From: an uncultured Clostridia bacterium
Lineage (GTDB): Bacteria > Bacillota > Clostridia > Christensenellales > UBA1242
Length of the DNA: 64,000 nucleotides
Direction: 5' to 3'
Assembly: GCA_949841045.1 (NCBI GenBank)
Contig: CATKXS010000005.1
Location: 650 to 64,649, forward strand
The position numbers and the translations under genes are program-made. The notes under the pieces were generated by a model. The model was not told the origin of the DNA. It did no database searches and saw nothing but the letters and a program-made list of their open reading frames with translations. Of this stretch, positions 8,096 through 58,740 are shown one piece after another. Numbering within the stretch: the stretch's first letter is position 1; each line of letters begins with the position of its first letter.

Positions 8096-10372
8096 ATGAA
8101 AACAAAAGCACTATATGCAATAAAATTTTTGGGCTTCACGCTACTATTTTTTGTTCTGTCAAGAGCAAGCATAAATGGTATAATTTATCCATTTGCTTTT
8201 TCTATGTTATTCGCACTTGCATGGGCAAATCAAAGAGTGTGGATACTCGCACCAAGTTATTTAATAGCCTCTATTGCGAGCAATCCTTCATTTCAGGGGG
8301 CAATTATTGCCTTTGTAACTATTGTTTTTTTAGTACTGCCTTATTATATCCATGTTAGCATTAGAAAACCTATGGCTAAATGGGAACTTTTTATTTACTC
8401 ATTTTTAAGCCAAGTGGGGTGGCTGGTTTTCTCAATTCTTGGCGGACAAAATATTGTTGCCGCCATAATTGCACCATTCGTTGGCTTATTTTATGAATTT
8501 CTTGCAATTACTATATTCGAGTCGCTTATTTCAAGAGGGCTTAACTATAAACTTACTCTTCCTGAGGTTTTGTGCGGTGGGGTAATTCTGCTTAGCGTTG
8601 CAAGCGGACTCGAGGGCATAAACATTTATGGTTTTTCATTTTTGAAACTTTTTGTTGCATTTACTGTTCTCGCCATTTCGCAGGTGTCGAGCGCTGGACG
8701 AACGGTAATTTTTGCCTCGCTTATGGGACTGGGCGCGCTTATCAGTAGCAATAATCCGATTTACATGACGCCATTTATTATATGGGCGCTGTTTACAATT
8801 TCGTTTAAATCTTTTCACCGCATTTTCTCAGCGATTGCACTTGTGCTCGGCGAACTTTTGGTGACATTCTATTTTAATCTATATTATTCGTTCACCATTG
8901 TTGGTTTCGTGTCTGTTGTAATCGGTGCACTTATTTTTCTATTTCTGCCTAAAAACTTCTATGACGAACTTGCCGTTCTTCTTTCAAGTGGTGAAGAGAG
9001 AAGTGCGATTAAATGTCTACTTAACAGAAACCGCGATACTTTGCAAAGGCGACTTAATAATTTGGCGGAGGTTTTTTATGACATGAATGTTGTTTTCCGA
9101 AAACTGATTAAAAGCCAGGCGAGCGAAGAGGAAGTTAAAGAAATGCTTTATGAAGAACTTAAATCTTCTATTTGCAAAAATTGTCCAGAACATAAACATT
9201 GCCATAGAACTTTTGCTGAGGATACAAGGAAGATATTTAAGAGCCTTGTCACGATTGCAATGGAAAGAGGGAAGATAACCTTGCTTGATTTGCCTAGTTA
9301 CCTCTCTTCAAGGTGTGCGCAGTCAGGAAGACTGATTTCTGAAATAAACCTCTTAACAAAACAATATAAAAATTACTCGGCACTTGTTGGAAATGTTGAT
9401 ACAAGCAAACTTCTCATTTCTGACCAACTTGAAGGGGTGTCGGGTCTTATGAAAACGCTGGCGGGTGAAGTTGACACAATGATAAGCATGGATAGTGCTC
9501 GCGAGAAAAGACTTCTTGAAGAACTTTCGTCAAATAACATAATTTGTACTGACGCTGTTGTGTACGAAAAAGACGCTCGTACAATGATGGCGACACTTGT
9601 AGTACGAGAAGAAGATATAAACAAACTTAAACTTCAATCAATCACTTCAAAAGTTTGCAACAATAAAATGGCGATTTATGAGGTCTATCCGACAGAAAAA
9701 GCGGGGCTTATGTCAGTCAGTATGAAAACTGCGCCAAGATTTGACTGCGTGTTTGGACTTGCGTCAACGCCAAAAGGCGGGAACGGTATTTCAGGTGACC
9801 GCCATAGCATTGAAAGGCTTGACGGCGATAGGTTTATTTTTGCAATTTGTGACGGTATGGGCAGTGGTGAAAAAGCAGGTGAAAAGGCTGAAACGGCCGT
9901 TGGTCTTATTGAAAACTTTTATAAGGCGGGTTTTGACAGCGACATTGTGCTTTCCTCTGTCAATAAACTTATGAACCTTGAAAAAGATGAAATCTTTTCA
10001 AGTGTGGATTGTTGTATCGTTGACCTTAAAGACGGAATTGCCGATTTTGTCAAAATGGGTGCGTCAAGTTCCTATATAAGAGGTGAGGACGGTTGCACCA
10101 TTGTTGGTTGTTCGGCACTTCCTGTTGGCGTGCTTGATGACGCAAAAGCGATTACCAAGAAAGTAGTCCTCAAAGATAAGGACTATATAATATTATGTTC
10201 TGACGGCATAAACGACAGTTTTGGAAGTGACGCTGAATTTAAAGATTACATTCTCACAATCAGAGAACAAAATCCGCAAGAACAGGCAGATGCAATTTTA
10301 AACAAAGCGCTTTCATTTAACAACAATTATGCAGTCGATGACATGACAGTTATTGTTGTAAAGATTTTCTAA
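8096..10372 (+). CDS. spoIIE: stage II sporulation protein E (membrane PP2C phosphatase)
   Basis: About 10 N-terminal TM segments and a C-terminal PP2C domain (ISGDRHS, FAICDGMGSGEKA, DDMTVIVVK). Start set at ATG 8096; the track's GTG 8009 lies inside a repeat element. Confidence 0.85.
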   Translation: MKTKALYAIKFLGFTLLFFVLSRASINGIIYPFAFSMLFALAWANQRVWILAPSYLIASIASNPSFQGAIIAFVTIVFLVLPYYIHVSIRKPMAKWELFIYSFLSQVGWLVFSILGGQNIVAAIIAPFVGLFYEFLAITIFESLISRGLNYKLTLPEVLCGGVILLSVASGLEGINIYGFSFLKLFVAFTVLAISQVSSAGRTVIFASLMGLGALISSNNPIYMTPFIIWALFTISFKSFHRIFSAIALVLGELLVTFYFNLYYSFTIVGFVSVVIGALIFLFLPKNFYDELAVLLSSGEERSAIKCLLNRNRDTLQRRLNNLAEVFYDMNVVFRKLIKSQASEEEVKEMLYEELKSSICKNCPEHKHCHRTFAEDTRKIFKSLVTIAMERGKITLLDLPSYLSSRCAQSGRLISEINLLTKQYKNYSALVGNVDTSKLLISDQLEGVSGLMKTLAGEVDTMISMDSAREKRLLEELSSNNIICTDAVVYEKDARTMMATLVVREEDINKLKLQSITSKVCNNKMAIYEVYPTEKAGLMSVSMKTAPRFDCVFGLASTPKGGNGISGDRHSIERLDGDRFIFAICDGMGSGEKAGEKAETAVGLIENFYKAGFDSDIVLSSVNKLMNLEKDEIFSSVDCCIVDLKDGIADFVKMGASSSYIRGEDGCTIVGCSALPVGVLDDAKAITKKVVLKDKDYIILCSDGINDSFGSDAEFKDYILTIREQNPQEQADAILNKALSFNNNYAVDDMTVIVVKIF

Positions 10373-10635
10373 GCCTCTTCGTCAAATAATGATAAAATAA
10401 ATTCTATTGCAAGAATTTCATTGGAAGCCATTACTCCTAATTCACAAAGTTCAAATTCGCGGTACTTATTCATTTGCTCTTTGTTAAGAGTTGTGGCAAA
10501 TTCCTCGAAAAGTTTATTATACTTTTCCTCATTTTCTTTGTCGCCGTCTGTTTGGTTTTTGTTTTTATAACGCGTGCGGTATAGAGCCATATAAAAAAGT
10601 TCGGCGATTTTTCTTAAAGTTGATTTGTATTCCAT
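10369..10635 (-). CDS. hypothetical helical protein
   Basis: 88-aa ORF, GGAG RBS, convergent with spoIIE with a 4-nt overlap. Confidence 0.5.
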   Translation of the reverse strand: MEYKSTLRKIAELFYMALYRTRYKNKNQTDGDKENEEKYNKLFEEFATTLNKEQMNKYREFELCELGVMASNEILAIEFILSLFDEEA

Positions 10636-10758
10636 TTTTTCTCCTTTTGTTTGATTTTATCATTTTAAATAGAAAAAGAATTTAGAAAACTCAAATGAGT
10701 TCAAAAAGTTTTTCTCTTCGATATAAATAGTAACATTTAAAAAATATTTTGACTTTAA

Positions 10759-10776
10759 TCTCCACAATTGTGGAGA
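10759..10776. promoter_or_regulatory. perfect 18-bp palindrome TCTCCACAATTGTGGAGA (candidate operator)
   Basis: Read directly in the divergent spacer between 10635(-) and dnaX, just upstream of the dnaX promoter. Confidence 0.4.
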
Positions 10777-10794
10777 AATTATTTCTTCATATGG

Positions 10795-10823
10795 TTGCAA
10801 TATTTGATAAAAAAAGTTATACT
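10795..10823 (+). promoter_or_regulatory. Sigma-A type promoter of dnaX
   Basis: TTGCAA, 17-nt spacer, TATACT. Confidence 0.55.
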
Positions 10824-10842
10824 AGTATTGTTAAGGAGAAGA

Positions 10843-11955
10843 ATGGAACATTTAGCACTTTACAGAAAATATCGTCCTGCAAATTTTGACGAAGTTGTTG
10901 GACAAGAACATATTACTAAGGCGCTCAAAAATCAGATTGCAAGTGGCAATATCGGACATGCTTATTTGTTTACTGGTTCGCGTGGAATTGGCAAAACTTC
11001 TATTGCCAGAATTTTTGCACGCGCTGTCAACTGTGAGGACAATCAAAACGGCTCGCCATGTGGCAAGTGTGAAAGTTGCAAACGCCTTGAAGGGCAGAGT
11101 GACATAAACATCATTGAAATTGACGCGGCGTCAAACAACCGTGTTGACGATATAAGAGAACTGAGGGAAAAAGTTAAGTTCACACCTGTTGACGCAAAGT
11201 ATAAAGTATATATCATAGACGAAGTTCACATGCTGACGGACTCAGCATTCAACGCGCTACTTAAAACTCTTGAAGAGCCACCAAAATATGTAATCTTTAT
11301 TTTGGCGACAACCGAAGCGCACAAACTTCCAGCGACTATTCTTTCAAGATGTATCCGCTTTGATTTTAGGCTTGTTTCACAAGAGCACCTTGTTGGTTTA
11401 CTTAAAAAAGTATTTGACAGCGAAAATATTGAATATGACGATGACGCACTTAGAGCCATTGCAGTTGCAGGCGAGGGTAGTGTGAGAGATACATTGTCAA
11501 TCGCTGATTGTGTAAACGCTTACTCAACCGGAAAGATTACGCTTGAATGTGTTGAGAGAGTACTCGGAACAACTGATGAAACACTTATGATAAACTTCTT
11601 TGGATACCTTAAAGACAGAGATGTTGGGGGGCTTCTTAAACTTATCAGTGATATTGACAAGAGCGGTAAAAATTTGCCAGTACTTGTAAAAGATTTATCA
11701 AGACATTCACGAAACCTGCTTATTGCAAAGTCTTGTGCAAGTCCTAATGAGATATTAAATCTTTCAGAAGAAAGTTTTGGGAAGTTGAAAGCACAGTCTG
11801 AGGTCTTTGACGAAAAGACACTTATCAGTTACATGCAAGTTTTTGCTGGTGCTGAGAATGAACTTCGTTATACAATGTCACCAAGGCTTTTACTTGAAAC
11901 ACTTGCCTTATCAGTTATGTCAGGGCAGGCGAGTGAGGACGTAAAAAAAAACTAA
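10843..11955 (+). CDS. dnaX: DNA polymerase III subunit gamma/tau, short (gamma-length) 0-frame product
   Basis: MEHLALYRKYRP, Walker A GSRGIGKTS, zinc module CGKCESC, IIDEVHML and SRC motif LSRCIRF. AAGGAGA RBS lies before ATG 10843. Ends in an A9 run. Confidence 0.9.
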   Translation: MEHLALYRKYRPANFDEVVGQEHITKALKNQIASGNIGHAYLFTGSRGIGKTSIARIFARAVNCEDNQNGSPCGKCESCKRLEGQSDINIIEIDAASNNRVDDIRELREKVKFTPVDAKYKVYIIDEVHMLTDSAFNALLKTLEEPPKYVIFILATTEAHKLPATILSRCIRFDFRLVSQEHLVGLLKKVFDSENIEYDDDALRAIAVAGEGSVRDTLSIADCVNAYSTGKITLECVERVLGTTDETLMINFFGYLKDRDVGGLLKLISDIDKSGKNLPVLVKDLSRHSRNLLIAKSCASPNEILNLSEESFGKLKAQSEVFDEKTLISYMQVFAGAENELRYTMSPRLLLETLALSVMSGQASEDVKKN

Positions 11956-11957
11956 AA

Positions 11958-12311
11958 ATGACAACGGCTAAGGGCAACCTTTCTGTTCGTACCATTTGGG
12001 GAAAAGTTGTACTTTACCTAAAAGAGCATCGTCAAGTTGCGCTCCACGTTGCGTGTGGTGACATAACTGATGTTAAACTTGAAGATGGTAAACTTGTTAT
12101 CAATGTTACTGAGCGAGTGCTTGCCGGACTTCTCACTGAGGGCAAGTCTGAAATTGAAAGGGCACTGCGTTGGCAGGGGCTTGATATGGAAGTTGTTGTT
12201 GTGATCAAAGAAATTGAAAGCTCAGAAGGTGAGCGGGATATAAAAAAATTAAATGAAGTTTTCGACAATGTGACTGTTGTTGAAAAGAAGACAAAAATGA
12301 TTTGGAGGTAA
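11958..12311 (+). CDS. DnaX C-terminal-domain-like ORF in the -1 frame relative to dnaX
   Basis: 117 aa. The pattern IWGKVVLYLKEH...VALHVAC...KLVINV...EIERAL resembles the C-terminal domain of Firmicutes DnaX. It starts 2 nt after the dnaX stop. Confidence 0.55.
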   Translation: MTTAKGNLSVRTIWGKVVLYLKEHRQVALHVACGDITDVKLEDGKLVINVTERVLAGLLTEGKSEIERALRWQGLDMEVVVVIKEIESSEGERDIKKLNEVFDNVTVVEKKTKMIWR

Positions 12312-12314
12312 AAA

Positions 12315-12638
12315 ATGGGATACGGTAATTTTGGAGGATTTGGCGGAGCAAACATGAATCAACTTATGCGCCAAGCACAAAAAATGCAAGAGGATATGGC
12401 AAGAGCCAAGAAGGAGCTTGAAGAGACTGTTTTCACATCTTCTGTTGGTGGTGGAATGGTTGAGGTTAAAATGACAGGTGCGAGAGAACTTAAAGCTGTC
12501 AATATTAAAGAGCAGGTTATTGACCCAGACGATAAAGAGATGCTTGAAGATTTAATCATTTCAGCAGTCAATGACTGTCTTGGACAAATCGCAAGAAAAG
12601 AGCAAGATTCACTTCCACAAGTGCCAGGACTTTTTTAG
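12315..12638 (+). CDS. ybaB: nucleoid-associated protein YbaB/EbfC
   Basis: MNQLMRQAQKMQEDM...GGGMVEVKMTG signature; canonical dnaX-ybaB-recR order. Confidence 0.9.
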   Translation: MGYGNFGGFGGANMNQLMRQAQKMQEDMARAKKELEETVFTSSVGGGMVEVKMTGARELKAVNIKEQVIDPDDKEMLEDLIISAVNDCLGQIARKEQDSLPQVPGLF

Positions 12639-12650
12639 AGGAGAAATGAG

Positions 12651-13238
12651 GTGAAGGAAGATTTTATTGAAAAACTTATAGAGAGTTTTAGAACACTTCC
12701 AGGCGTTGGGTATAAGACTGCCCAGCGCTACGCTTTTTCTATTATAGAGGGTTCAAGGGATAGGGCAGAGCGTTTTAGTAAATCGCTCATTGAAGCCAAA
12801 GATAAAGTTGGGTTTTGCAAGGTTTGTGGCAATTTTACCGACACCCAAGTATGTCCGATTTGCCAGCATAGAAATAGAAAAATTATTTGCGTTGTCAAGG
12901 ACCCTAAGGATATTATGGCAATGGAAAAGGTCAAAACTTATGACGGCGTTTACCATGTTTTATTTGGAACAATCAGTCCGCTTGAGCATAGAGGCCCGGA
13001 CGATATTAAGATAAAAGAGCTTCTCGCAAGAGTGGGTGAGGACAATGTGGAAGAAGTTATTATGGCGACAAATCCTGATGTTGAGGGTGATGCGACTGCC
13101 ATGTATATTGCAAAACTTCTTCGTCCGCTTGGAGTAAAAGTGACGCGTATTGCGCAAGGTGTTGCAATGGGAAGCGACCTTGAATACGCCGACGAAGTGA
13201 CATTGTCAAGAGCGCTTGAAGGAAGACGCGAATTATAG
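12651..13238 (+). CDS. recR: recombination protein RecR
   Basis: [14 protein letters not shown] helix-hairpin-helix, C4 zinc finger CKVCGN...CPIC and a Toprim region. GTG start. Confidence 0.9.
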
Positions 13239-13261
13239 GTATACTGAATTTTGTAGTATGT

Positions 13262-15046
13262 ATGAAAGAAATCATACAAGATATAGTGACGGAGCATGAG
13301 ATGAACATTATTAAAGATATTGAAAAACTTTTAAATGATGGTGCGATTAAAGCGGGATTTGACGAAAAATTTTCGGTAAGCTTTTCTGACAAAAGAGAGA
13401 TTTGCGACTTTCAATGTAACGGTGCATTTGCGCTTGCAAAGAAGTATGGCAAAAATCCTTTTGACATTGCAAGTGAAATTGTTGGAAGTATTGAGCAAAA
13501 CGAAGATTTTATTTTTAGCGTGGCTAGACCTGCGTTTATCAATATAAAACTTACTGACACTCTTCTCAGTAAATGGGGAAATTTTGTTCTTCATGATGAG
13601 AGAGGCGGGCTTGAAAAAAATGAGAAAAAAGCAAGAGTGCTGTTAGACTATGGTGGTGCGAATGTTGCCAAAGCGTTACATATTGGACACCTTAGACCTG
13701 CCATAATTGGTGAGAGTTTGAAGAGGCTTTATAAGCTTTTGGGTGACGAGGTTATATCCGACGTTCACCTTGGGGACTGGGGGCTTCAAATGGGACTTAC
13801 CGAACTTCAACTTTTTGAAGAAGGGAAGCTTGGCTTCTTTTTTGGGGAGTCCAAAGAAAAGTATGATATTACTATTGACGACTTAAACGAAGCCTATCCG
13901 ACCGCAAATAAGAGAAAGGTTAGTGAGGAAGACTTTAAGAAAAAGGCGGAAGAGTGGACGCTGAAAATTCAGAAAAAGCAAGAGCCTTATTATAGTGTTT
14001 ACAAAATTATTAGAGAACTTTCGGTGAAGGAAATTGCAAAAAATTATTCTAAGCTTGGAGCAGAGTTTGACCTCTGGAAAGGCGAGAGTGACGCGAGTGA
14101 TTTTACCAAAGAGGCTGTTGAAATAATTAAGAATAAAGGCCTCGCAAGAGAGAGCGAAGGTGCGCTTGTTGTTGACGTTGCCGAGGAGGGCGAGAACATT
14201 CCGACTGAAGACGGCAAGTTTATCAATCCTATGCCGCCATGTCTTATTCAAAAGTCAAATGGAGCCGACCTCTATGCGACAACTGATATTGCAACTATAC
14301 TTATGCGTAACAAAGAGTACAAGCTTGACCGAATTGAGTATGTGACTGACGGCAGGCAGAAAATGCATTTTACGCAAGTTTTCAGAGTTTGCAAGAAGAG
14401 TGGAATTTCACCAGAGGGGCAAGAGCTTGTCCACATTGTAAACGGAACTATGAACGGAAATGACGGGAAGCCATTCAAGACACGTTCGGGGGACACTGTT
14501 AAACTTGAAGATATTATCGCTCTTTTGACAAGTAAAGCAAACGAGAAGCTTGAGGCGAACGGTGCAAAAGCTGATGCCGATATGGCGCTTTCAATCGGTG
14601 TTGCTGCAATGAAGTTTGGCGACCTTTCAAACACCGTCAGCAAGGATTATGTTTTTGACATTGATAAGTTTATGGCGTTTGAGGGAAAGACTGGACCTTA
14701 TATTCAGTATTCGGTCGTTAGAATAAATTCCATTTTAAGTAAACTTGAAGGTGTAGAGGATGGTGAAATTAATGTGACTTCGCCAGAGGAAAGAGAAATT
14801 TTGCTTGCCTCACTGAGGCTTAACTCTGCCTACTATATTTGCTATCGCGAAAAATCTCTTAACAATCTTTGTTCGAGTCTTTATGATTTTGCAAGTGCAT
14901 TCTCAACATTTTATAACAACCACAATGTTGTGGGTGAAAAAGATAAGGAAAAACAAAAGAGTTATGTTGCGCTTTTAAAACTTATACGAAAGAAAATGTT
15001 ACAAGCGCTTGATGTACTTGCTATAAGCGTTCCTAAAAAAATGTAA
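13262..15046 (+). CDS. argS: arginine--tRNA ligase
   Basis: HIGH motif ALHIGHLRPA; ArgRS-type N-terminal and anticodon-binding regions; 594 aa. Confidence 0.85.
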   Translation: MKEIIQDIVTEHEMNIIKDIEKLLNDGAIKAGFDEKFSVSFSDKREICDFQCNGAFALAKKYGKNPFDIASEIVGSIEQNEDFIFSVARPAFINIKLTDTLLSKWGNFVLHDERGGLEKNEKKARVLLDYGGANVAKALHIGHLRPAIIGESLKRLYKLLGDEVISDVHLGDWGLQMGLTELQLFEEGKLGFFFGESKEKYDITIDDLNEAYPTANKRKVSEEDFKKKAEEWTLKIQKKQEPYYSVYKIIRELSVKEIAKNYSKLGAEFDLWKGESDASDFTKEAVEIIKNKGLARESEGALVVDVAEEGENIPTEDGKFINPMPPCLIQKSNGADLYATTDIATILMRNKEYKLDRIEYVTDGRQKMHFTQVFRVCKKSGISPEGQELVHIVNGTMNGNDGKPFKTRSGDTVKLEDIIALLTSKANEKLEANGAKADADMALSIGVAAMKFGDLSNTVSKDYVFDIDKFMAFEGKTGPYIQYSVVRINSILSKLEGVEDGEINVTSPEEREILLASLRLNSAYYICYREKSLNNLCSSLYDFASAFSTFYNNHNVVGEKDKEKQKSYVALLKLIRKKMLQALDVLAISVPKKM

Positions 15047-15073
15047 TTATTTCAAAAAAGTTTGAAAAGGGTA

Positions 15074-15102
15074 TTTACAAATTGTTAATTTTGTGTTAGA
15101 AT
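15074..15102 (+). promoter_or_regulatory. Sigma-A type promoter (extended -10)
   Basis: TTTACA, 17-nt spacer, TGT-TAGAAT. Confidence 0.55.
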
Positions 15103-15126
15103 ATTGTATGAAGTATGGAGGACAAC

Positions 15127-15282
15127 ATGAAAAATAGAATTGCTTACAAGTTAAATGATAACTATCTTGCTACTTGCACTATCTTTGGAAAGGGCAAAAT
15201 GGTTAATAAAGAAAAGTCTTTCACTCTTGCTAATTCAAACAAGAAAACAGTTGATTTAGACGGATTAGATATTGAAATGTAA
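15127..15282 (+). CDS. small protein (51 aa), unannotated in the ORF track
   Basis: Own translation: MKNRIAYKLNDNYLATCTIFGKGKMVNKEKSFTLANSNKKTVDLDGLDIEM. GGAGG lies 6 nt upstream, with its own promoter and terminator. Confidence 0.55.
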   Translation: MKNRIAYKLNDNYLATCTIFGKGKMVNKEKSFTLANSNKKTVDLDGLDIEM

Positions 15283-15291
15283 GAAACAATG

Positions 15292-15320
15292 AAAGTGCTC
15301 GTTTTTTGAGCGCTTTTTTT
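15292..15320 (+). terminator. Rho-independent terminator
   Basis: aaagtgctc / gagcgcttt stem (one G-U pair) followed by a T-run. Confidence 0.65.
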
Positions 15321-15416
15321 GTGTACTAGGATTTCTATGAATTTGAGGTATGTAAGAAAAACAAGCAAGCGTGCTTGTTATTGTCAACATATTGAGAAAG
15401 TGTCATATATATTATT

Positions 15417-15899
15417 ATGGTTAAAAGTTATGACAGGACGGAGGCGGTTCGTTATGCAAGGGAGTGGGCGCTTGGAAAAAATCCCGACTTCTATTTCTTT
15501 GGTGGAATAGGCGGTGACTGCACCAACTTTGTCTCGCAGTGTCTCTTGGCTGGCGGCGGGGTGATGAACTATGATAAAATCAAAGGTTGGTATTATAATA
15601 GTTCTTTTGACCGCTCGGCTAGTTGGACGAGTGTTGCTTACTTTATGAAGTATCTTCTTAGAAAAGAGGACAGCAAAGGCCCGAAAGGCGAGATTATCTC
15701 GCTTTCCGAAGTAGAGGTGGGAGATATTCTCTTTCTTCGTCAAAATCCTACTCATTTTAACCATAGTTTAATAATCACAAGAAAAGTGGGTGGTAGAGTG
15801 TTTGTTTGTGCACATACAAACAGCGCTTTAGATAAACCGCTCAATGAGTACTTTTATAATGAAATTTTGCCTATTCATATAATAAATATAAATGCTTGA
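15417..15899 (+). CDS. putative amidase-domain (Amidase_6-like) protein
   Basis: YDRTEAVRYAREWA...GGDCTNFVSQCLLAGG motif with a catalytic Cys context. Confidence 0.65.
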   Translation: MVKSYDRTEAVRYAREWALGKNPDFYFFGGIGGDCTNFVSQCLLAGGGVMNYDKIKGWYYNSSFDRSASWTSVAYFMKYLLRKEDSKGPKGEIISLSEVEVGDILFLRQNPTHFNHSLIITRKVGGRVFVCAHTNSALDKPLNEYFYNEILPIHIININA

Positions 15900-15946
15900 C
15901 AATCGGCAAAAATTGAGTAAAATTAAATTATTAAAAGGAGTAGAAT

Positions 15947-16180
15947 ATGAAAGAATTGATTTCCACAATGGAAAAATTTCCACTTTGGTTAAAAGTTGTC
16001 TTAGCTCTTCCATTTCTTGACATCGTTTGGGTTGTCTATAGAATTATGAGGTCTCTTGACAAACAAAACTATCTTGGAGTTATCATCGCGATTATCTTCA
16101 TTATAATCGGTATACCTTTCCTTTGGCTGATTGATATAATTTGTATTTTAGTCAAGGGCAACGTATTTTGGATTGATTAA
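15947..16180 (+). CDS. small two-TM membrane protein
   Basis: 77 aa, two hydrophobic helices; RBS aaaggag. Confidence 0.55.
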   Translation: MKELISTMEKFPLWLKVVLALPFLDIVWVVYRIMRSLDKQNYLGVIIAIIFIIIGIPFLWLIDIICILVKGNVFWID

Positions 16181-16213
16181 TTGCAAATCGTGTTCGTGCA
16201 ATTGTATGCAGAG

Positions 16214-16249
16214 CAAAAAAAAACTGAGCAAATTATGCTCAGCTTTTTT
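16214..16249. terminator. bidirectional Rho-independent terminator
   Basis: ctgagca / tgctcag stem flanked by A9 and T6, between convergent genes. Confidence 0.75.
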
Positions 16250-16335
16250 ATTTAAAAGAAAGGCAATAAGATTTTATTGAGTATTTTTTATTTAATAAAA
16301 GTTGAAAATGAGAGGGAGGAGACTAAAGACAGTTT

Positions 16336-16998
16336 TTAACTGTTAAAATTTGATTGCGTTCCGACACTTAAAATTTTATAGCCGTCCTCATTAATTTCAA
16401 CAAGTGAAGAGATATAGCCAAAACTGTTTGCTTCATATCCGCCATAAACTCGTTGCAATATTTGAAGATAATACCTATCAAGGGCAATGTTATAATATGG
16501 GAAGATTGTGTTGACGTCTGTTACATAGAGGGTGCAGTCTTCCTTGCAACCAGACGAGGAGGCGTCCATGTAAAGAGCTTTTCCTTGATAGTCAATTTGA
16601 ATTATGTTGTCACTTAAATAACTCGCTTCAATGGTAGGTTTGAAATCGGCGCTGTTGAATACAAGTTTTGCTTCGCTATCTTTAAATGAATATATTTCAT
16701 AGAAGCTATAACCGCCACTTCCACCGCTCTCAATACTGTAAAGAACTTGTTCAAGGCCATTGCCAAGAAAGTTTGCAACAAAAAGAGTAGGGGTATAACC
16801 GATATTTGCAATAGGCTCAACTTCAATTTCGTCAGTACCTGTTGTGACTTTTATAATAATATTTTCACGCAAGACTTTGCCATCACTACAAATGCTGACA
16901 TTGCTATATTTATTGCTTTCTATTAGGTTGCCTACCTTATAATCGCAAGCAGGTGATGCGAGCGAAAGGCAGGCTAAAATAAGAGGTAATGTTTTCAT
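16336..16998 (-). CDS. secreted protein or lipoprotein candidate, function unknown
   Basis: N-terminal signal-like MKTLPLILACLSLASPAC; 220 aa and beta-rich. No obvious SD. Confidence 0.55.
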   Translation of the reverse strand: MKTLPLILACLSLASPACDYKVGNLIESNKYSNVSICSDGKVLRENIIIKVTTGTDEIEVEPIANIGYTPTLFVANFLGNGLEQVLYSIESGGSGGYSFYEIYSFKDSEAKLVFNSADFKPTIEASYLSDNIIQIDYQGKALYMDASSSGCKEDCTLYVTDVNTIFPYYNIALDRYYLQILQRVYGGYEANSFGYISSLVEINEDGYKILSVGTQSNFNS

Positions 16999-17095
16999 AG
17001 TTTTATTTTGATGAAATTATATTTTATTATACATAAAATATATCTTTTCATTTTGAATATAATAAATTTAATGTTAAAATATTAAAGGGGACGTT

Positions 17096-17665
17096 ATGAT
17101 AACAATAAGAGATAAAAAAGATAGTATTATCAAAATGAAAGAGTTAAGACTTAACTATTTTCCACTTGACTATTTTGAGGTGAGTAATAAGGCGGGCATA
17201 AAGAAGTTTATGGAAGAAAACCCCTCAGATGAATATGTGCTCAGGTCAGCAAATAAGGCAAAAGGCAACTTCTTTTTTGTGAAAAACTTTGAAGAGGCGG
17301 AGGCTAAACTTGGCGAATTTGAAAATGAAGTTACTATTAGCGTTTCATATAACCCATATAAAGAGGACATTGTTCTCGTTGGCGACATAATTGTCCATAA
17401 AGATTTTAGCGGGGAAACGATTGACTTGACTGCTCGCACAGACACCGAAGCAACGCATAGAAATATATATGAAAATCCTAAATATAATCTTCATACAAGC
17501 ATTGAAGATGATAAACTTTGGAATATTCCAGGCATTTCAAAGGTAATGAGATATATTTCTGACCATGAACTTTATAATGTCATTATTGAATTTTCGGTCT
17601 ATGACTGCAAACTTGGCGTAAACAAAGAGAATGTTGTCATAAGCGAACTGAGAACGGGTTACTAG
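17096..17665 (+). CDS. hypothetical protein
   Basis: 189-aa ORF, RBS aaagggg. No family recognised. Confidence 0.55.
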   Translation: MITIRDKKDSIIKMKELRLNYFPLDYFEVSNKAGIKKFMEENPSDEYVLRSANKAKGNFFFVKNFEEAEAKLGEFENEVTISVSYNPYKEDIVLVGDIIVHKDFSGETIDLTARTDTEATHRNIYENPKYNLHTSIEDDKLWNIPGISKVMRYISDHELYNVIIEFSVYDCKLGVNKENVVISELRTGY

Positions 17666-17671
17666 ACTTAA

Positions 17672-17924
17672 TTTACATCAAAAACAGTTTAAAACTGGAA
17701 CGTAAAATATTTAGTGTTTTGGGTAAAATTAACGATAAAAACAGTTTAAAACTGGAACGAAAAAAAATGGTGATTAAAATAAAGTTTACGATAAAAACAG
17801 TTTAAAACTGGAACGTAAAAGATTTAGTGTTTTGAATAAAAATTAACGATAAAAACAGCTTAAAGCTGGAACGAAAAAAATTGGTGATTAAAATAAAGTT
17901 TACGATAAAAACAGCTTAAAGCTG
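17672..17924 (+). repeat. tandem array of 5 hairpin units (about 57-bp period; two copies of a ~114-bp double unit)
   Basis: Palindromes at 17685-97, 17742-54 and 17798-810 are CAGTTTAAAACTG. Those at 17856-68 and 17912-24 are CAGCTTAAAGCTG. Conserved flanks are ACGATAAAAA and GGAACG(T/A)AAA. Confidence 0.9.
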
Positions 17925-17954
17925 TTGACTAAGAGGATAAGTTTAGTTTAAAAT
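17925..17954 (+). promoter_or_regulatory. Sigma-A type promoter abutting the last repeat unit
   Basis: TTGACT 17925-30, 18-nt spacer, TAAAAT 17949-54. AAGGAGGG RBS lies before ATG 17974. Confidence 0.5.
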
Positions 17955-17973
17955 ATATAAAAAGGAGGGCTTT

Positions 17974-18573
17974 ATGAAAGAGTTTTTGTGGGATGATGAC
18001 GACTTTGATGATGACGATGATGACGATGATGACGATGATGATGACGATGATGAAGACCCTTTTGGAAAAGATAAAGACCCAGACAAAGATGACGATGATG
18101 AAAATAATGATGATGAGGACAAAAAAGACAAAGATGACGTTGATGGCGAGGGTAAAGACGAGGATTTAGAAGTCAAAGAAAAAGATGGTGAAGGCGATAA
18201 GGATAAGGGCAAAGATAAAGACGACAAAGGGGATAAACAGAAGGGAAGAGATCCAAACGCACGCAAAATGATTGCAAGAGCAAAAGGGCTAGGATTCCCA
18301 GCTACTATCATTCCTATGTATAGATGTCCAACTTGTCACCAAAAATCTCTTTTTGCTGACAAAGTCGTGCCAACTGGCGCAAGAACAGTCAAATTTATTG
18401 TACAAGCTTGTGTAGGTGCTGTTAGAATTGACGAGGCTGTTGATATTGCAAGATTTGTTTGTTTTAATCCAAAGTGTAAATCCTTCTGGCCAAGGTCGGG
18501 AGACAAATTAAAGATTAATCCAACAAACGGCAAACTTATAGTAGAGAAGCATTGGTTCCATGTGTCGAGATAA
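17974..18573 (+). CDS. poly-Asp acidic protein with C-terminal zinc-ribbon-like domain
   Basis: About 90 N-terminal residues are dominated by D/E/K, including a D-run of more than 20. The C-terminus carries CPTCH...CFNPKC (CxxC...CxxC). Confidence 0.65.
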   Translation: MKEFLWDDDDFDDDDDDDDDDDDDDDEDPFGKDKDPDKDDDDENNDDEDKKDKDDVDGEGKDEDLEVKEKDGEGDKDKGKDKDDKGDKQKGRDPNARKMIARAKGLGFPATIIPMYRCPTCHQKSLFADKVVPTGARTVKFIVQACVGAVRIDEAVDIARFVCFNPKCKSFWPRSGDKLKINPTNGKLIVEKHWFHVSR

Positions 18574-18726
18574 GGCAGATTATTGAAAAACATCGCAAGA
18601 GGTTTAATGTTAAAACTATTAAATTAAAAAATAAAAAAGAAGTACAAAATTGGACTTCTTTTTTTTGTGCGATTCTTTTGATTTTTTATTTGATGGAAAT
18701 AAGTGGGCTTAAAATTAGTTTGAAAA

Positions 18727-20223
18727 TTATTCCTCAAAAAGATTGTTGTTTAGAAATACAGGTTCGCAGGTGACGTTTATTCCAAGTTTTTTAAGTGTCA
18801 ATTCTTCAGATGCAGGCAAGATAAAGGTAGAGTGAGCCTCACAGCCTTCAAGCATTGGAAGTTTTGATAATGCCTTCCTTGCTTTCTCATTTTGTCTTGC
18901 AGAGATTGACAGTGCGACTAGTACGTCATCAAGAGAAAGTACTTGGCAATTTGTATGGAGTTTATTCTTTCTTAGGTCGATTATAGGCAACAGTATATCA
19001 TCAGAAATTATATCAAAACCATCATCAAGCTGGGCTAGCTGTCTAAGAGCATTTAGAACAACAGCTCCGCTGGCTGAAACGACTGTCTTGTTTTTTCCAT
19101 AGACAACATTTCCATCATTAAGCATAAGGCATACGCATGGATACGAAGAAGTTTTGCTTGTTGCCTTTGCAAGTGGAACAACTTTGAGATAGTCCTCAGT
19201 TATGTTTAGTTCAGATACCAGACAGCGAGACCTTTCAAGAGTGTCAAAATTTATTTGTCCACGTTTATAATCACATTCTGCACGGAAAGAGCGTCTTACA
19301 ACCTCTCTTTTTGCCGCGTCTTCGACAACATTTTCATCTATTATTGCCTCTGCGACCATGTTTACGCCCATGTCGGTAGGTGATTTGTAAATATCTTCGC
19401 CTACGATTTTTTTAAGTATTCTTTTTACAACAGGAAAAACTTCAATATCGCGGTTATAGTTCACGGTGAGCACGCCGTATTCACTAAAATGATATGGGTC
19501 TATCTGGTTTACATCTTTTATGTCTGCGGTTGCTGATTCATAGGCAATGTTGACAGGGTGTTTGAGCGGAAGGTTCCACACTGGGAAAGTTTCGAATTTT
19601 GCGTAGCCAGCTTTAATGCCGTGTTTGTATGAATGATATAATTGACTGAGGCAGGTGGCAAGTTTTCCGCTTGAAGGGCCTGGCGCAGTCACAACAACGA
19701 GAGGACGGGTGGTTTCAATATATGGGTTTGCGCCATAGCCCTCATCAGAAACAATTGTGTCAATATCACTTGGATAGCCTTTTGTATAACTGTGATAGTA
19801 TACATGCTCGCCATGTCTTGTGAGCTTTTGACCAAATTTGACTGCACTTGGTTGTCCTTTAAAGAGGGTGATAACAATACTTGAAACATATAGTCCAAGT
19901 TTTCTTAAGTTATCAATTACTCTTAGCATATCATTATCATAACTAAGTCCGAGGTCGGCGCGAATTCTATTTTTCTCAATGTCGCCCGCTGAAATGCAAA
20001 AGATGATTTCAGCTTCCTTTTTCAGCGTTTCGAGGAGTTTGGTCTTTATATTAGGAGCAAAACCTGGAAGTACTCTGCTTGCATGAAGGTCATCAAATAG
20101 CTTTCCTCCAAACTCGAGATAAAGCTTGTTGTCAAACTTTTTTATACGCTCGAGTATCTTTTGACTTTGTTTTTTAAGATAAAGTTCGCTGTCAAAGCCA
20201 AGTTTTTTTATTTTTTCTTCCAT
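18727..20223 (-). CDS. DUF1846 (UPF0371) family protein
   Basis: KLGFDSELYLKKQSQKILERI...LYLEFGGKLFDDLHASRVLPGF is characteristic. Start moved to the ATG at 20223, preceded by GGAGG. Confidence 0.75.
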   Translation of the reverse strand: MEEKIKKLGFDSELYLKKQSQKILERIKKFDNKLYLEFGGKLFDDLHASRVLPGFAPNIKTKLLETLKKEAEIIFCISAGDIEKNRIRADLGLSYDNDMLRVIDNLRKLGLYVSSIVITLFKGQPSAVKFGQKLTRHGEHVYYHSYTKGYPSDIDTIVSDEGYGANPYIETTRPLVVVTAPGPSSGKLATCLSQLYHSYKHGIKAGYAKFETFPVWNLPLKHPVNIAYESATADIKDVNQIDPYHFSEYGVLTVNYNRDIEVFPVVKRILKKIVGEDIYKSPTDMGVNMVAEAIIDENVVEDAAKREVVRRSFRAECDYKRGQINFDTLERSRCLVSELNITEDYLKVVPLAKATSKTSSYPCVCLMLNDGNVVYGKNKTVVSASGAVVLNALRQLAQLDDGFDIISDDILLPIIDLRKNKLHTNCQVLSLDDVLVALSISARQNEKARKALSKLPMLEGCEAHSTFILPASEELTLKKLGINVTCEPVFLNNNLFEE

Positions 20224-20500
20224 AAGACCTCCATGATTCAAATTTGCCTTTATTTATAAGGGTTATAGCGATTTTTTGCTATCAAAAAATCATTTCAATT
20301 TTAAGTATACTTATTTTGACGCAATTTTCATAATATTTTCCTATTTATTATCTAGAAAAAATTTTGCTTATATAATTGCTTTTGGAAAATTTTTGTGATA
20401 GAATAATTTACGTGACACCTCTTTTTTAAGTAGTGTAACATGTATAATTTAATTTTTAATTTGTAAACTAAAACTAAAAGTTTTAGATAAGGGAATAATA

Positions 20501-21772
20501 ATGAAGAAGAAAATATTGATTTTGACCGTCACAGCAGGCAATGCGCATAATGAATGTGCAAAGCGTATAAAGGAAAAATTGCAAAGTCTTGATAGTGAAG
20601 CGGAAATAAAAATTATTGATGTTCTCAATACATATTCGACTGCTATGAGGGCGTGGGTTGCTGATGAGGGATATAATCTCGTAGTTGGTAAAATGGTTTG
20701 GGCTTATCATCCTTTCTATAATCATTATAAAAAGGCAAAGCCAGAAAATAGATATACTTGCGGAGCGCAAGGCTCGGCTATGTCAATCATGAGAGGTCTC
20801 TTAGCCGAAGTCATAGACTTTGAGCCCGATGTAATTTATTGCACTCATTTCTATGGCGCGATTGCACTCAGCAATTTAAGGCTTGTATATGATTTGCCTT
20901 GCAAAGTTGTGATGACATCACTTGATTATGTTTATTCGCCTTTCTGGGAGGGGGCAATCAATGTTGATTATTTCAATATCCCAAACGAGGACTTTATTGA
21001 TGGAGCGTTAAGACTTGGTTTTTCACATTCTCAACTTCTGCCATTTGGTCTTCCAGTTAGCGAAAAAACACTTGAAGTTGTGGACAAGCTTGAGGCTAGA
21101 AAAGAGCTTGGAATTGATGAAAATCTTACAACAATTTGTGTTATGTTTGGCGGCGGACTTTGGAAGGGTGGTTTTGAGATTTTTAAAAACCTTTTAGCCT
21201 CTCTTAAAGGACATAAAGCGCAAATCATCATGATTAATGGCAAAAACAAGAAAGATTATGACCGTATTAGTAAGATGAAGTTTGACGAGGGGATTAAAGT
21301 TGTCAATGTCGGCTTTACTGACAAGGTCTCATTGTATCTTTCTGCATCAGACTTTATTATCAACAAGTGTGGTGGCGCGTCTGCAACAGAAATGATTAAC
21401 AAGGCGCTTCCTATGATTATAACAGAAAAAGTGCCAACGCAAGAAATCTACAACTATAAATATCTTAAAGAAAAGGGCTGTGCTTTTTCATTTGGTAATA
21501 AAAAAGAACTTAAAAGACATGTACTTGATCTTCTTTTAGACAAAGATTTAAGAGAAAAGATGAGTGACAACTGTCGAAAGATTAGAAAAGACGCTTTAAA
21601 TGATTTGGCGAGGTTTATTATGACTTTCCCTAAAGCTGATTATTCTAAATTACATGCAACTGACATAGATTTAAAGAGGTTAAATAAAATAGTAAAACAA
21701 AAGATGTGCGAGGCTCAGAAAAAAGAACATTTAAGCTTGAAACAAGCAAAAAAGATGGAATGCCACGCTTAG
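20501..21772 (+). CDS. MGDG-synthase family glycosyltransferase (UgtP/YpfP-like diacylglycerol glycosyltransferase)
   Basis: N-terminal KILILTVTAGNAHNECAKRI and C-terminal NKCGGASATEMINKALPMI GT-B motifs. Confidence 0.7.
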   Translation: MKKKILILTVTAGNAHNECAKRIKEKLQSLDSEAEIKIIDVLNTYSTAMRAWVADEGYNLVVGKMVWAYHPFYNHYKKAKPENRYTCGAQGSAMSIMRGLLAEVIDFEPDVIYCTHFYGAIALSNLRLVYDLPCKVVMTSLDYVYSPFWEGAINVDYFNIPNEDFIDGALRLGFSHSQLLPFGLPVSEKTLEVVDKLEARKELGIDENLTTICVMFGGGLWKGGFEIFKNLLASLKGHKAQIIMINGKNKKDYDRISKMKFDEGIKVVNVGFTDKVSLYLSASDFIINKCGGASATEMINKALPMIITEKVPTQEIYNYKYLKEKGCAFSFGNKKELKRHVLDLLLDKDLREKMSDNCRKIRKDALNDLARFIMTFPKADYSKLHATDIDLKRLNKIVKQKMCEAQKKEHLSLKQAKKMECHA

Positions 21773-30368: not shown

Positions 30369-31316
30369 ATGTTAAATTTCTTTCTTGTTTTTTTAGTTGG
30401 ACTTGCCTCAGCACTTATTTTTGGCAAACCAATACTGATGCTTTGTAAGAAACTTCATTTGTCTCAAACTATTCTTCATTATGTGGACAAGCATGCGGGA
30501 AAAAGTGGAACGCCGACAATGGGTGGGCTTATCTTTATTTTTGCCTCCATATTTGCTTCCGCTTTCTTTTTGAAAGGCGATGTGCTATTTTCAATATTAA
30601 TTCTACTCACTATGCTTGGCTATGGGCTACTCGGTTTTCTTGATGACTTTATTAAAATCAAATGGCACAAAAACGAGGGGCTTAAGCCTTATCAAAAAAT
30701 TATAGGGCAACTTGGACTTGCTCTCATTATTGCCGTTTTCACATACTTTAAAGTTGGAAGTGATATAGACCTTTTTGGACTAAAGCTCAATCTTAGCTTT
30801 TTTATCATTCCATTTGTTGTGATTTTTTATGTGGCTGTAACCAATTCTGTTAATTTAACAGATGGGCTTGACGGGCTTGCTTCAAGCGTGAGTTTTGTCT
30901 TTCTTTTGGCGTTTAGCGGTATTTGTATTATTCTTGGTGAATACAACTTTACTATAATTTCGCTCGCAATGGCGGGGGCTTTACTTGGATTTTTATTTTA
31001 CAACGGATTCCCAGCTAAAATCTTCATGGGCGATACTGGCTCGCTCGCGTTAGGGGGACTGCTTGCCTCTCTTTGCGTTTTTACCAAGCTTGAACTAGTA
31101 ATGCTCATCATTGGAATTATGTTTGTGCTTTCTGCTGTAAGCGACATTTTGCAAGTTGCTTATTACAAAAAAACGCACAAGCGTATATTTCTTATGGCTC
31201 CTCTTCACCACCATTTTGAGAAAAAGGGAGTTCATGAAAATAGAATTGTTATTTCTTATTCAATTGTGACCTTGATTTGTGGAATCGCTGTACTGCTTGG
31301 TTACATGGTGCTTTAA
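30369..31316 (+). CDS. mraY: phospho-N-acetylmuramoyl-pentapeptide transferase
   Basis: GTPTMGG, NLTDGLDGLA, MGDTGSLALGG and PLHHHFE. ATG 30369 follows AGAGG. Confidence 0.95.
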   Translation: MLNFFLVFLVGLASALIFGKPILMLCKKLHLSQTILHYVDKHAGKSGTPTMGGLIFIFASIFASAFFLKGDVLFSILILLTMLGYGLLGFLDDFIKIKWHKNEGLKPYQKIIGQLGLALIIAVFTYFKVGSDIDLFGLKLNLSFFIIPFVVIFYVAVTNSVNLTDGLDGLASSVSFVFLLAFSGICIILGEYNFTIISLAMAGALLGFLFYNGFPAKIFMGDTGSLALGGLLASLCVFTKLELVMLIIGIMFVLSAVSDILQVAYYKKTHKRIFLMAPLHHHFEKKGVHENRIVISYSIVTLICGIAVLLGYMVL

Positions 31317-31401
31317 GCACGCGGATTATCCGCCTACTATCATTAAGAGTATTTGAATTCTTCAATTTATTACGTTCCGTGTCTTAAGCACGCGAATTAT
31401 C
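31315..31401 (-). repeat. two long-form hairpin units (minus orientation) in the mraY-murD spacer
   Basis: GCGGATTATCCGC (31321-33). Direct repeat AAGCACGCG(G)A(A)TTATC at 31315 and 31386. TATTACGTTCC (31369-79) is the reverse complement of GGAACGTAATA. Confidence 0.6.
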
Positions 31402-31495
31402 TTTTTTTTGATTATTTCAAAAGTTAAATTAGATTATATTAATCATATTGTAACAAAAAGAGCAGTATATTACATTGTATATTTGCGAGGAAGAT

Positions 31496-39862: not shown

Positions 39863-40020
39863 GTGCATTATGATTCTATTCACTTCGTGTGCCTTAGGCA
39901 CTTTTTACCACTGCGTTGCACCTTAGGTGCTTTCTATCTACTTCGTTGTGTATTATGCACTTTTTGTTTACTTCGTTGGGGTCTTAGTCAATTTTATCTA
40001 CTACGTTTGTACCTCGACTT
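39863..40020 (-). repeat. short-form hairpin array (about 30-bp period, 5-6 units)
   Basis: The plus strand reads (C/T)ACT(T/A/G)CGT(T) + palindrome + T-run. Palindromes are GTGCCTTAGGCAC 39889-901, GCACCTTAGGTGC 39918-30 and GTGTATTATGCAC 39948-60, with degenerate units at 39863, 39978 and 40008. Confidence 0.85.
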
Positions 40021-41043: not shown

Positions 41044-41100
41044 ACTTTAATAAGTAAAATTTATCTATATAAGGTGCATCATGCACCAAAAGAGGGTGTT

Positions 41101-41869: not shown

Positions 41870-41896
41870 TATTAAAGCTTACAAAAATTGAATAAG

Positions 41897-41908
41897 AGGG
41901 CATAATGC
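41897..41908 (+). repeat. degenerate GGGCATAATGCC palindrome
   Basis: aGAGGGCATAATGCCTCt, with the same A-rich 5' context as the other copies. Confidence 0.6.
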
Positions 41909-42241
41909 CTCTGAAAACATTCCAAAATAAGTCATGTACGTTGTTATTGTACACCCCTTACTTTGGAACATTTTCGAGCCTTGCCTTGCTTGTTTCTAGG
42001 CTGACTGTTGAAATTTTAGCAACCAAATGTTACACGGCTATCGTAAATTATATCAGATACTTAAAGTTTGTGACGTTCCTGTAAAAGTACAGAAAATGAA
42101 AAATGGCATAATTAATCGAAAAATCCGCAAAAATGGTGATAAAATGGGCAAAAACAATGATTTTTTCTAGTTTTGTCCTTTTTTTTGGGTTGTGAATAAA
42201 AAATATTAGCTTTGAGGAAGATATATTTACTAGGAGGAATT

Positions 42242-58321: not shown

Positions 58322-58740
58322 GTGGCTAAGCCACACGACAATCGCGCAGCGTAAGGCTGGGGAACGTAAAAATATAAAAATTAAAAATGGCTTACGAAAG
58401 TCGCGCAGCGTAAGGCTGTGGGAACGTAAAAATATAAAAATTTAAAAATGACTTACGAAAGTCGCGCAGCGTAAGGCTGTGGGAACGTAATATTAACAAA
58501 ACTTTAAATACAATAGACGATAAACGTCGAACATTTGGTTCGGCGGGAACGAAATAAATTTAAAAATCAAATATAACTAACGATAATGATGCAAACTAAG
58601 TTTGCTGGAACATAATAAAACCAAAACTTTAGATATGTCTTACGATAATCGCGCAGCGTAAGGCTGCTGGAACGTAATAATATAAAAATTTAAATACTAT
58701 AGACGATATTCGTGCAACATTTGTTTGCTGGGGAGGAAAT
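58322..58740 (+). repeat. tandem array of 8 hairpin units (58-63 bp period) ending on the U32 gene RBS
   Basis: ACGA boxes at 58336, 58394, 58454, 58517, 58580, 58642 and 58703. Stems vary (CAGCgTAAgGCTG x4, CGAACaTTTgGTTCG, GCAAACTAAGTTTGC, GCAAcATTTGtTTGC, GTGGCTAAGCCAC). 3' boxes are GGAAC(G/A)(T/A)AA. Confidence 0.9.

Follow-up and report, generated by a model that had tools for sequence, protein, structure and literature searches.

The 64,000-nucleotide stretch analysed here (the window) belongs to a metagenome-assembled genome (MAG) of a spore-forming member of the Clostridia. It is chromosomal DNA of about 35% GC, with argS, the dcw cluster, ftsA/ftsZ, spoIIGA-sigE-sigG, tsaD and further housekeeping genes. 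It contains five short hairpin modules (a1 to a5, hereafter array 1) that stand directly upstream of the gene of a poly-Asp protein, called gene 17974 after its start codon. Array 1 was found to be one copy of a repeat family that is scattered in this genome and is not specific to the poly-Asp gene. On balance, we consider that the array is probably not a device dedicated to the control of gene 17974 but the product of local tandem amplification within a lineage-restricted repeat family of the BOX/SPRITE/REP kind, non-coding and modular. The family, which we take to be new, resembles the BOX, REP, SPRITE and STAR elements in function and is a member of none of them. The data covered 64 kb of the source genome together with about 110 kb from relatives. 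The window is a MAG contig built from short reads and tandem copy numbers are given as assembled; the units are diverged enough (75-95% identity) to assemble. The coordinates of all features are collected in Table 1.

Array 1 begins 7 nucleotides past the stop codon of the preceding gene (17096-17665) and its final hairpin touches the -35 box of the promoter of gene 17974. The five palindromes reported by a first-pass annotation of this DNA were all recovered at the same positions, with palindrome-to-palindrome spacings of 57, 56, 58 and 56 bp. Each consists of complementary 6-nucleotide arms on either side of a central A (6+1+6), which as a hairpin gives 5 base pairs and a 3-nucleotide loop. 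The double unit of about 114 bp, present in two copies, was likewise borne out: Tandem Repeats Finder returned a period of 114 (17672-17924, 2.2 copies, 92% matches) and a period of 56 (17670-17924, 4.5 copies, 81% matches). The identities between units are 91% for a1/a3 and 95% for a2/a4 as against 77% for a1/a2 and 75-81% for adjacent units, which indicates that array 1 grew at least in part by duplication of a two-unit block. Exact matches to the pattern CAGYTTAAARCTG were observed only at the five array 1 palindromes, and 11 matches were found on the two strands when up to one mismatch was allowed (0.71 expected). With the covariance model R1, units a1-a4 reach 44-53 bits and unit a5 reaches 24 bits. 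No open reading frame (ORF) of at least 40 residues runs across array 1 on either strand.

The module of the family is about 57-61 bp long and is made up of (T)ACGATAA, a short hairpin of variable sequence, (G)GGAACG(T/A)AA and an AT-rich linker of 27-30 nucleotides. Four sites carry it within the 64 kb, with 2, 2, 5 and 7 units and with two sites on each strand, and the genes beside them are unrelated (poly-Asp, TrhP-like U32, mraY/murD and sigE/sigG). The flanks of array 1 had been said to match those of the array at 58.3 kb (array 2), and this was confirmed by the pattern ACGAWA-N15-30-GGAACG, which has 7 matches in the window, all within arrays 1 and 2, when 0.15 would be expected. A stricter two-unit pattern gave 5 matches in the window against an expectation of 0. 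The distance from GGAACG to the next ACGATAA was observed to be 33-36 nucleotides in every unit.

The seven modules of array 2 start at 58335, 58394, 58455, 58517, 58580, 58642 and 58703, and six of them score 41-62 bits with R1. Four stem types are found in this array, namely CGCAGC-GTAAG-GCTGYG, CGTCGAAC-ATTTG-GTTCGGCG, GCAAAC-TAA-GTTTGC and GCAAC-ATTTG-TTTGC. The claim that these stems are unrelated to those of array 1 holds only in part: the commonest of them, CAGC-GTAAG-GCTG, has CAGC...GCTG in common with a4 and a5. The final hairpin of array 2 lies 3 nucleotides from the Shine-Dalgarno sequence (SD) GGGGAGG (58730-58736) of the U32 peptidase gene, which starts with ATG at 58742 and whose top NCBIfam match is TrhP, under the curated cut-off.

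The remaining two sites were found by motif, profile hidden Markov model and covariance-model searches. Site c reads hairpin CTGTACTTTTACAG, GAACGT, a linker with GTCACA-N16-TGaTATAAT, then TTTACGATAG and hairpin GTAACATTTGGTTGC. Site d, a weak match, reads AGATAAT, hairpin CGTGCTTAAGACACG, GAACGTAA, a 29-nucleotide linker, ATGATAG, the palindrome GCGGATAATCCGC and hairpin GTGCTTAAAGCAC. This last hairpin abuts the stop codon of mraY and differs from the a4 hairpin CAGCTTAAAGCTG by two more compensated pairs. We assign the names mraY and murD from the sizes and order of the ORFs relative to a Pfam-annotated locus of a sister lineage (L142). The site d pair is antisense to the operon inside the dcw cluster. 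On the plus strand at this site, a hairpin, 9 nucleotides and T8 are followed by a possible murD promoter, TTGTAA-N17-TACATT, which was found by eye.

Among the named entries of the protein database, the nearest relatives are MAGs labelled 'Clostridia bacterium' and 'Candidatus Caccovivens'. Orthologous poly-Asp loci were located through the neighbouring DUF1846 gene, which is 80-82% identical to that of the window in the sister lineages L139, L140/L141 and L142 and 66% identical in the more distant L001. In the three sister lineages, the poly-Asp gene follows the same upstream gene after a spacer of 57-123 bp and no repeat unit was found in any of these spacers. They still hold TTGACT, 18 nucleotides, (TT)TAAAAT and AGGAGG, the same across four lineages. 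TTGACT and TTTAAAAT are unchanged in the window, L139, L140 and L142, of which only the window has the array, and the SD AGGAGG is unchanged among the poly-Asp orthologues. Array 1 occupies exactly the place between the upstream stop codon and the conserved promoter. The promoter and SD that had been proposed for gene 17974 stand. TTGACT-N18-TAAAAT, which starts right after the fifth palindrome, agrees with the consensus at 10 of 12 positions and is the top sigma-70-type match of the region. Because this promoter and the SD are invariant where the units are absent, we conclude that the promoter is real and predates array 1. The first-pass annotation had considered the palindromes as possible phased operators for gene 17974 and had named orthologous loci without the units as an outcome that would speak against its proposal; the three sister lineages keep the gene and the promoter without units.

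The same was observed at the locus of array 2. In three related lineages whose U32 is 79-83% identical, the tsaD-U32 spacer holds no units and retains the SD context GGAGGAAATTATG, or in L135 the close variant AGGAGAAAATATATG. A search with the unit profile and model R1 over about 94-103 kb of sister-lineage DNA gave no credible match. In L001, about two inverted and two to three direct units are present in the spacer upstream of the poly-Asp homologue, where the final hairpin abuts the SD; this spacer is identical in three independent assemblies. The distribution of the family thus appears to be narrow and patchy, absent in the sister lineages and present in the more distant L001. Wider scans returned chance matches only, with 9 matches to the strict two-unit pattern in JGI metagenome contigs and 5 to a slightly relaxed one in IMG/VR. 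Furthermore, no family members were seen among the 119 matches listed for GGAACGWAA..ACGAWA..GGAACG in genome contigs. These 119 loci are unrelated tandem repeats of about 30 nucleotides, since GGAACGAAA itself contains ACGAAA. No match was found for array 2 by BLAST against plasmids and phages, for positions 15000-21000 of the window against phages, or for the whole window in Rfam 15 at the gathering threshold. Rfam searches of 17500-18100 with E up to 10 gave spurious eukaryotic and archaeal matches only.

The part of the module that varies is the hairpin. Across the 56 positions of a2 and a4 there are only 3 differences, two of which form a paired T to C and A to G change in the stem. This comparison and the covariation in the alignment bear out the earlier statement that a compensatory change preserves the palindrome. 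In a ten-unit alignment the inner stem is paired in 91.5% of cells, and two of its pairs change on both sides (GC/AU in one case and CG/UA/AU in the other). This inner-stem covariation score was reached by 0 of 500 shuffles, a control that is only indicative as the units are paralogues. At least six different stem sequences occur in the family, and the conserved part consists of the non-palindromic flanks ACGATAA and GGAACG, which show no covariation. Stems that differ yet stay paired within conserved flanks speak against an array of operators and for a hairpin of the nucleic acid itself. An outer helix TTACG/CGTAA, predicted in some units, was rejected as it shows only losses, no covariation and 76% pairing.

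The predicted RNA free energy is -3.0 kcal/mol for the a1-type hairpin and -5.4 to -7.5 kcal/mol for the a4/a5 type. The sense-strand RNA hairpin was at least as stable as its complement in 13 of 15 cases, and the hairpins of arrays 1 and 2 and of site c are the more stable ones on this strand. The difference is wide where G-U pairs occur, with values of -10.5 versus -4.4 and -11.6 versus -5.9 kcal/mol. Site d breaks this trend because its opposite strand folds as well or better. The fold z-scores of the arrays are -2.5 and -3.0. We also noticed a regularity in the linker. The hexamer that begins 8 nucleotides before ACGATAA reads TAnnnT in 8 of the 13 units and is a perfect TATAAT in three, namely both direct units of L001 and site c. 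In this register the mean match to TATAAT is 4.38 of 6, as compared to at most 3.6 in the other linker registers and 3.92 for GATAAN inside ACGATAA. A -35-like element is found at site c only (GTCACA-N16-TGaTATAAT, 10/12 with a TG extension), and scans for sigma-70-type promoters found none within array 1 and gave marginal candidates at best in array 2.

Two smaller features of the array 1 units may be mentioned. The C/G variant of the hairpin (17856-17868 and 17912-17924) has two AGCT sites, and the T/A variant corresponds to a C to T change on each strand. Symmetric deamination at the two AGCT sites of CAGCTTAAAGCTG, if these are methylated, could speed both changes; it still needs two events on opposite strands and is no substitute for selection or templated correction. 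In addition, the a2 and a4 linkers (17768-17806 and 17882-17920) each open a 12-codon ORF, MVIKIKFTIKTV/A, that ends in the TAA of the next hairpin. It starts with ATG in one copy and TTG in the other, has no counterpart in array 2 and is probably fortuitous. Mini-ORFs such as this 12-residue one were rejected as coding units since the frame and start codon vary across units.

If array 1 is a local amplification of this family, it would have arisen after the split from the sister lineages. Insertion, expansion or both would have taken place in the short stretch that separates the stop codon of gene 17096-17665 from a pre-existing promoter, and growth would have come at least partly through duplication of the 114-bp double unit. 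The modules of the family stand alone, in pairs or in tandem runs of at most 7, and both orientations are seen among the several intergenic spacers that carry them. The hairpin would be kept through paired changes of its arms, either by selection on the folded strand or by palindrome-templated correction or gene conversion. Effects on neighbouring genes would be a by-product or a secondary co-option: hairpins might come to lie at the 5' or 3' end of mRNAs, the -10-like box of the linker might provide weak additional promoters, and the upstream promoter region might be displaced.

Several observations weigh against a family that is simply propagated and amplified. The hairpin end touches a gene boundary at five of six array ends (the -35 box once, an SD twice and a stop codon twice), which would not be predicted by purely random insertion. 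The -10-like TAnnnT stands in one fixed register in 8 of 13 linkers, which may point to a function or to an origin from a working promoter. The poly-Asp homologues of two distant lineages both have units upstream. Furthermore, no transposase or other mobilising protein was identified among the proteins scanned in the 64 kb of the source genome, neither a target-site duplication nor a terminal inverted repeat was found at the array ends, and the 'head' sequences of array 2 and L001 show loose similarity only. The fixed -10-like box and the contact with gene boundaries keep a functional reading alive. In its most far-reaching form, which we regard as rather unlikely, the module would be an undescribed, directionally inserting regulatory cassette of uncultured gut Clostridia. 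Such a cassette would combine a weak promoter or -10 box, an ACGATAA start site and a 5' hairpin. Tandem amplification and docking of the hairpin end on gene boundaries would let the number of units tune transcription or mRNA-end stability, and spread might be due to a strand-specific enzyme that acts on a site with conserved flanks and a variable hairpin.

The rival explanation to which we give most weight, although we think it unlikely, is that of a propagated promoter/leader cassette. It would consist of the -10 box of the linker, a start site at ACGATAA and a transcript-stabilising 5' hairpin, and stacks of it would add to the transcription that enters the gene behind them. For array 2 and L001, the cassette nearest the gene would act as its promoter and furnish its short 5' untranslated region. 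The fixed register of the -10-like box (TAnnnT in 8 of 13 units, mean 4.38/6), its perfect form in both direct L001 units and at site c, where GTCACA-N16 and TG complete a 10/12 match, and the constant GGAACG-ACGATAA distance of 33-36 nucleotides are consistent with this. So are the last hairpins of array 2 and L001, which lie directly before the SD with no other promoter evident between array and gene, and the greater stability of the sense-strand hairpins through G-U pairs. However, no -35-like element is present at 16-18 nucleotides save at site c, and the canonical -35 of the native 17974 promoter indicates that such boxes are in use in this genome. Units b0 and b1 lack a -10-like box. Sites c and d, like the inverted units of L001, face away from any coding gene, and site d would drive antisense transcription into mraY within the dcw cluster. 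The common -10-like box may also reflect shared descent and not selection. A somewhat less probable idea, which we consider doubtful, is that the units are co-transcribed as an array of functional RNA hairpins that act as mRNA-end stabilisers, RNase processing sites or a protein-binding sponge. It would account for the compensatory changes that preserve the stems, the G-U pairs that favour the sense strand, the fold z-scores and the hairpins abutting an SD or stop codon, where end-protecting structures act. Against it, the hairpins of array 1 are very weak (-3 to -5.4 kcal/mol) and would be transcribed by read-through only as they lie upstream of the conserved promoter. Units are missing from the orthologous loci, Rfam has no matching family, and the strand opposite the module at site d folds equally well or better.

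The regulator-based explanation, in which the palindromes are phased operators where a dimeric DNA-binding protein controls the 17974 promoter, was suggested by their 13-bp length, the regular 56-58-bp spacing and the end of the array at the -35 box. It fails since the palindrome is variable, the same module stands beside unrelated genes in both orientations and the orthologous promoters are conserved without any unit. The palindromes were observed to differ between and within arrays (CAGYTT.., CAGC-GTAAG-GCTG, CGAAC.., GCAAAC.., GTAAC.. and GTGC..), whereas the conserved positions are the asymmetric flanks, and several stems have asymmetric 5-nucleotide loops and G-T pairs. Pfam, NCBIfam and PADLOC scans of the neighbouring proteins found no regulator gene adjoining the poly-Asp locus, and we now hold this explanation to be highly improbable. 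Only a little more credit is due to a SPRITE-like terminator on the opposite strand, where the reverse complement of the unit, a hairpin with a T-rich tract, would stop transcription coming from the opposite side. A scan did call minus-strand terminator-like sites at a4 and a5 (CAGCTTTAAGCTG followed by TTTTTATCGT), and the plus strand of site d has the hairpin CGTGTCTTAAGCACG, 9 nucleotides and T8 just past mraY. It is very unlikely in view of the short and weak stems, the lack of a T tract on the opposite strand of array 2 units and the fact that no minus-strand gene reads into array 1. Tandem non-coding repeats directly upstream of a small uncharacterised protein gene also recall the RNA antitoxin of a type III toxin-antitoxin system, or a CRISPR-like array, and both can practically be set aside. 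Scans with PADLOC, Pfam and NCBIfam gave no match for the poly-Asp protein and thus no sign of a ToxN/AbiQ-like toxin family. Its orthologues lack the repeats, the same repeats precede the housekeeping U32/TrhP-like gene, and a promoter instead of a terminator lies between array and gene. A CRISPR array would show the reverse of what is seen here, where the 'spacers' are homologous to each other in an alternating A/B order and it is the 'repeats' that differ.

Further motifs were considered and rejected. The spacings do not fit ECF-type (GGAAC-N16-17-CGT), sigma-54 or sigma-H promoters. The family consensus agrees only loosely with sigma-D/sigma-28 (TAAA-N15-nCGATAA): an A takes the place of the key C, the surroundings are AT-rich and none of the genes downstream is a flagellar one. 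Sigma-E-like boxes occur in units b2 and b5 alone. A K-turn between the flanks is at odds with the G-A geometry, attC sites would need R'/R'' inverse cores that the units lack, and Spo0A, CodY, cre, Fur and LexA boxes match partially and in single units only.

Among known systems, the lineage-restricted repeat family favoured here is closest to the BOX elements of Streptococcus pneumoniae, which are built as boxA-boxB(n)-boxC (Croucher et al. 2011, PMC3049150). The pneumococcal BOX, RUP and SPRITE repeats have a narrow and patchy distribution, and BOX is plentiful in one lineage while close relatives lack it and a more distant one has it (PMC3049150). BOX has been interpreted as largely parasitic DNA that is able to affect co-transcribed genes (PMC3049150). 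The family resembles BOX in being a short non-coding intergenic repeat with an internal module of variable tandem copy number (2, 2, 5 and 7 units here), in the stem-loops predicted if it is transcribed, in the unrelated neighbour genes and in its patchy distribution. The two share no sequence similarity, and we saw neither boxA/boxC-type terminal modules nor terminal inverted repeats or target-site duplications in the family. In its module the asymmetric flanks are conserved, the hairpin between them is variable and the linker has a fixed length. SPRITE is a pneumococcal element that resembles a Rho-independent terminator (PMC3049150). A hairpin with an AT-rich tract near gene ends is shared with SPRITE and STAR; however, the stems here are much shorter than in SPRITE and a T tract is present in array 1 units only, on the opposite strand only. 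The STAR repeats of Staphylococcus aureus are short, GC-richer repeats that occur at regular intervals in AT-rich spacers, a layout that the family shares.

The REP/BIME and REPIN elements of Proteobacteria are short palindromic units with a conserved 5' motif, GTAG, and a RAYT transposase. A conserved motif 5' of the hairpin, intergenic arrays and compensatory changes that keep the hairpins are common to these elements and to the family described here. REP arrays, however, alternate in orientation or form inverted doublets whereas the arrays here are mainly direct tandems, the 5' motif is ACGATAA and not GTAG, and a divergent arrangement is seen in L001 only. REPINs are described in PMC8049555. 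No RAYT (IS200/IS605-like TnpA) was found among the window proteins scanned, a subset of the ORFs of the 64 kb. PeSL are promoter-stem-loop cassettes of T4-type phages. Putative mobile promoters and promoter reuse have also been described (Nijveen et al. 2012, PMC3575422). Like mobile promoters and PeSL, the module places homologous upstream sequence, with a promoter-like box and a stem-loop, before non-homologous genes. Unlike them, its promoter is only putative and most units lack a -35, units also point away from genes, and they form tandem stacks without ORFs in between. ToxI-type RNA antitoxin arrays belong to type III toxin-antitoxin systems. They too are tandem short non-coding repeats immediately upstream of a small gene, but no protein of a toxin family is seen here and the gene is conserved without the repeats, which also stand beside housekeeping genes.

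On the reading preferred here, the case illustrates that a phased hairpin array beside a promoter can be repeat DNA and not regulatory design, and that comparison of orthologous loci separates the real promoter from the newcomer sequence. It adds a new BOX/REP-like example from poorly known uncultured gut Clostridia, whose relatives are labelled Candidatus Caccovivens. The family could serve in strain typing and is a likely cause of assembly breaks. The promoter/leader cassette, if true, would represent a compact natural tuning of promoters or mRNA ends by copy number.

Table 1. Positions in the window of the hairpin modules and of the expression signals of the poly-Asp gene
Feature	Coordinates	Strand	Remarks
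Array 1	17672..17924	+	five modules a1-a5; 2.2 copies of a 114-bp double unit
Hairpin a1, CAGTTTAAAACTG	17685..17697	+	identical in a2 (17742-17754) and a3 (17798-17810)
Hairpin a4, CAGCTTAAAGCTG	17856..17868	+	identical in a5 (17912-17924); compensatory C/G variant
Native sigma-A-type promoter of the poly-Asp gene	17925..17954	+	TTGACT (17925-17930), N18, TAAAAT (17949-17954)
SD and poly-Asp/Cys-domain gene	17964..18573	+	SD GGAGGG (17964-17969), ATG at 17974, 199 aa
Site d	31315..31402	-	between mraY and murD (names inferred); weak match, R1 and nhmmer 12.4 bits
Site c	42005..42100	-	between sigE and sigG; R1 19.3 bits
Array 2	58335..58738	+	seven modules, period about 61 (Tandem Repeats Finder)

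The poly-Asp protein matched no Pfam, NCBIfam or PADLOC family, and a word-indexed search of 5.8 billion proteins returned one match to it, a distant homologue. Exact look-ups of the poly-Asp, ArgS, DUF1846 and U32 proteins of the window gave no record. Its acidic N-terminal half evolves fast while the C-terminal domain is conserved with the cysteines of a CPxC...CxNxxC motif. The orthologues (L139:1642-2205, L140:7766-8344, L142:11622-12206 and L001:1563-2243) are 31-44% identical. Two genes (16336-17665) lie between a gene for a 77-residue protein and the poly-Asp gene in the window, L139, L140 and L142 and are absent at the L001 locus; they encode 220 residues on the minus strand (YybI_C-like in relatives) and 189 residues on the plus strand. 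In L140, a serine recombinase, a resolvase fragment and a GmrSD-like gene (10188-13494) replace the 77-aa/Amidase_6/argS neighbourhood, which suggests an inserted mobile or defence island.

The minus strand between sigE (41074-41832) and sigG (42212-43015), where site c lies, contains a candidate small RNA at 41885-42074. It would comprise the promoter-like GTCACA-N16-TGaTATAAT, the 5' motif and hairpin of the repeat, a long hairpin with 19 bp of perfect pairing and a terminator-like hairpin (41912-41895). Its predicted fold has -47.4 kcal/mol (z = -4.5) and it has no Rfam match. Tandem repeats unrelated to the hairpin family were also observed at 39874-39948, 44355-44421 and 54989-55034, with 29 nucleotides in 2.6 copies after ftsZ, 30 nucleotides in 2.3 copies upstream of feoB and near nrdR, and 20 nucleotides in 2.3 copies.

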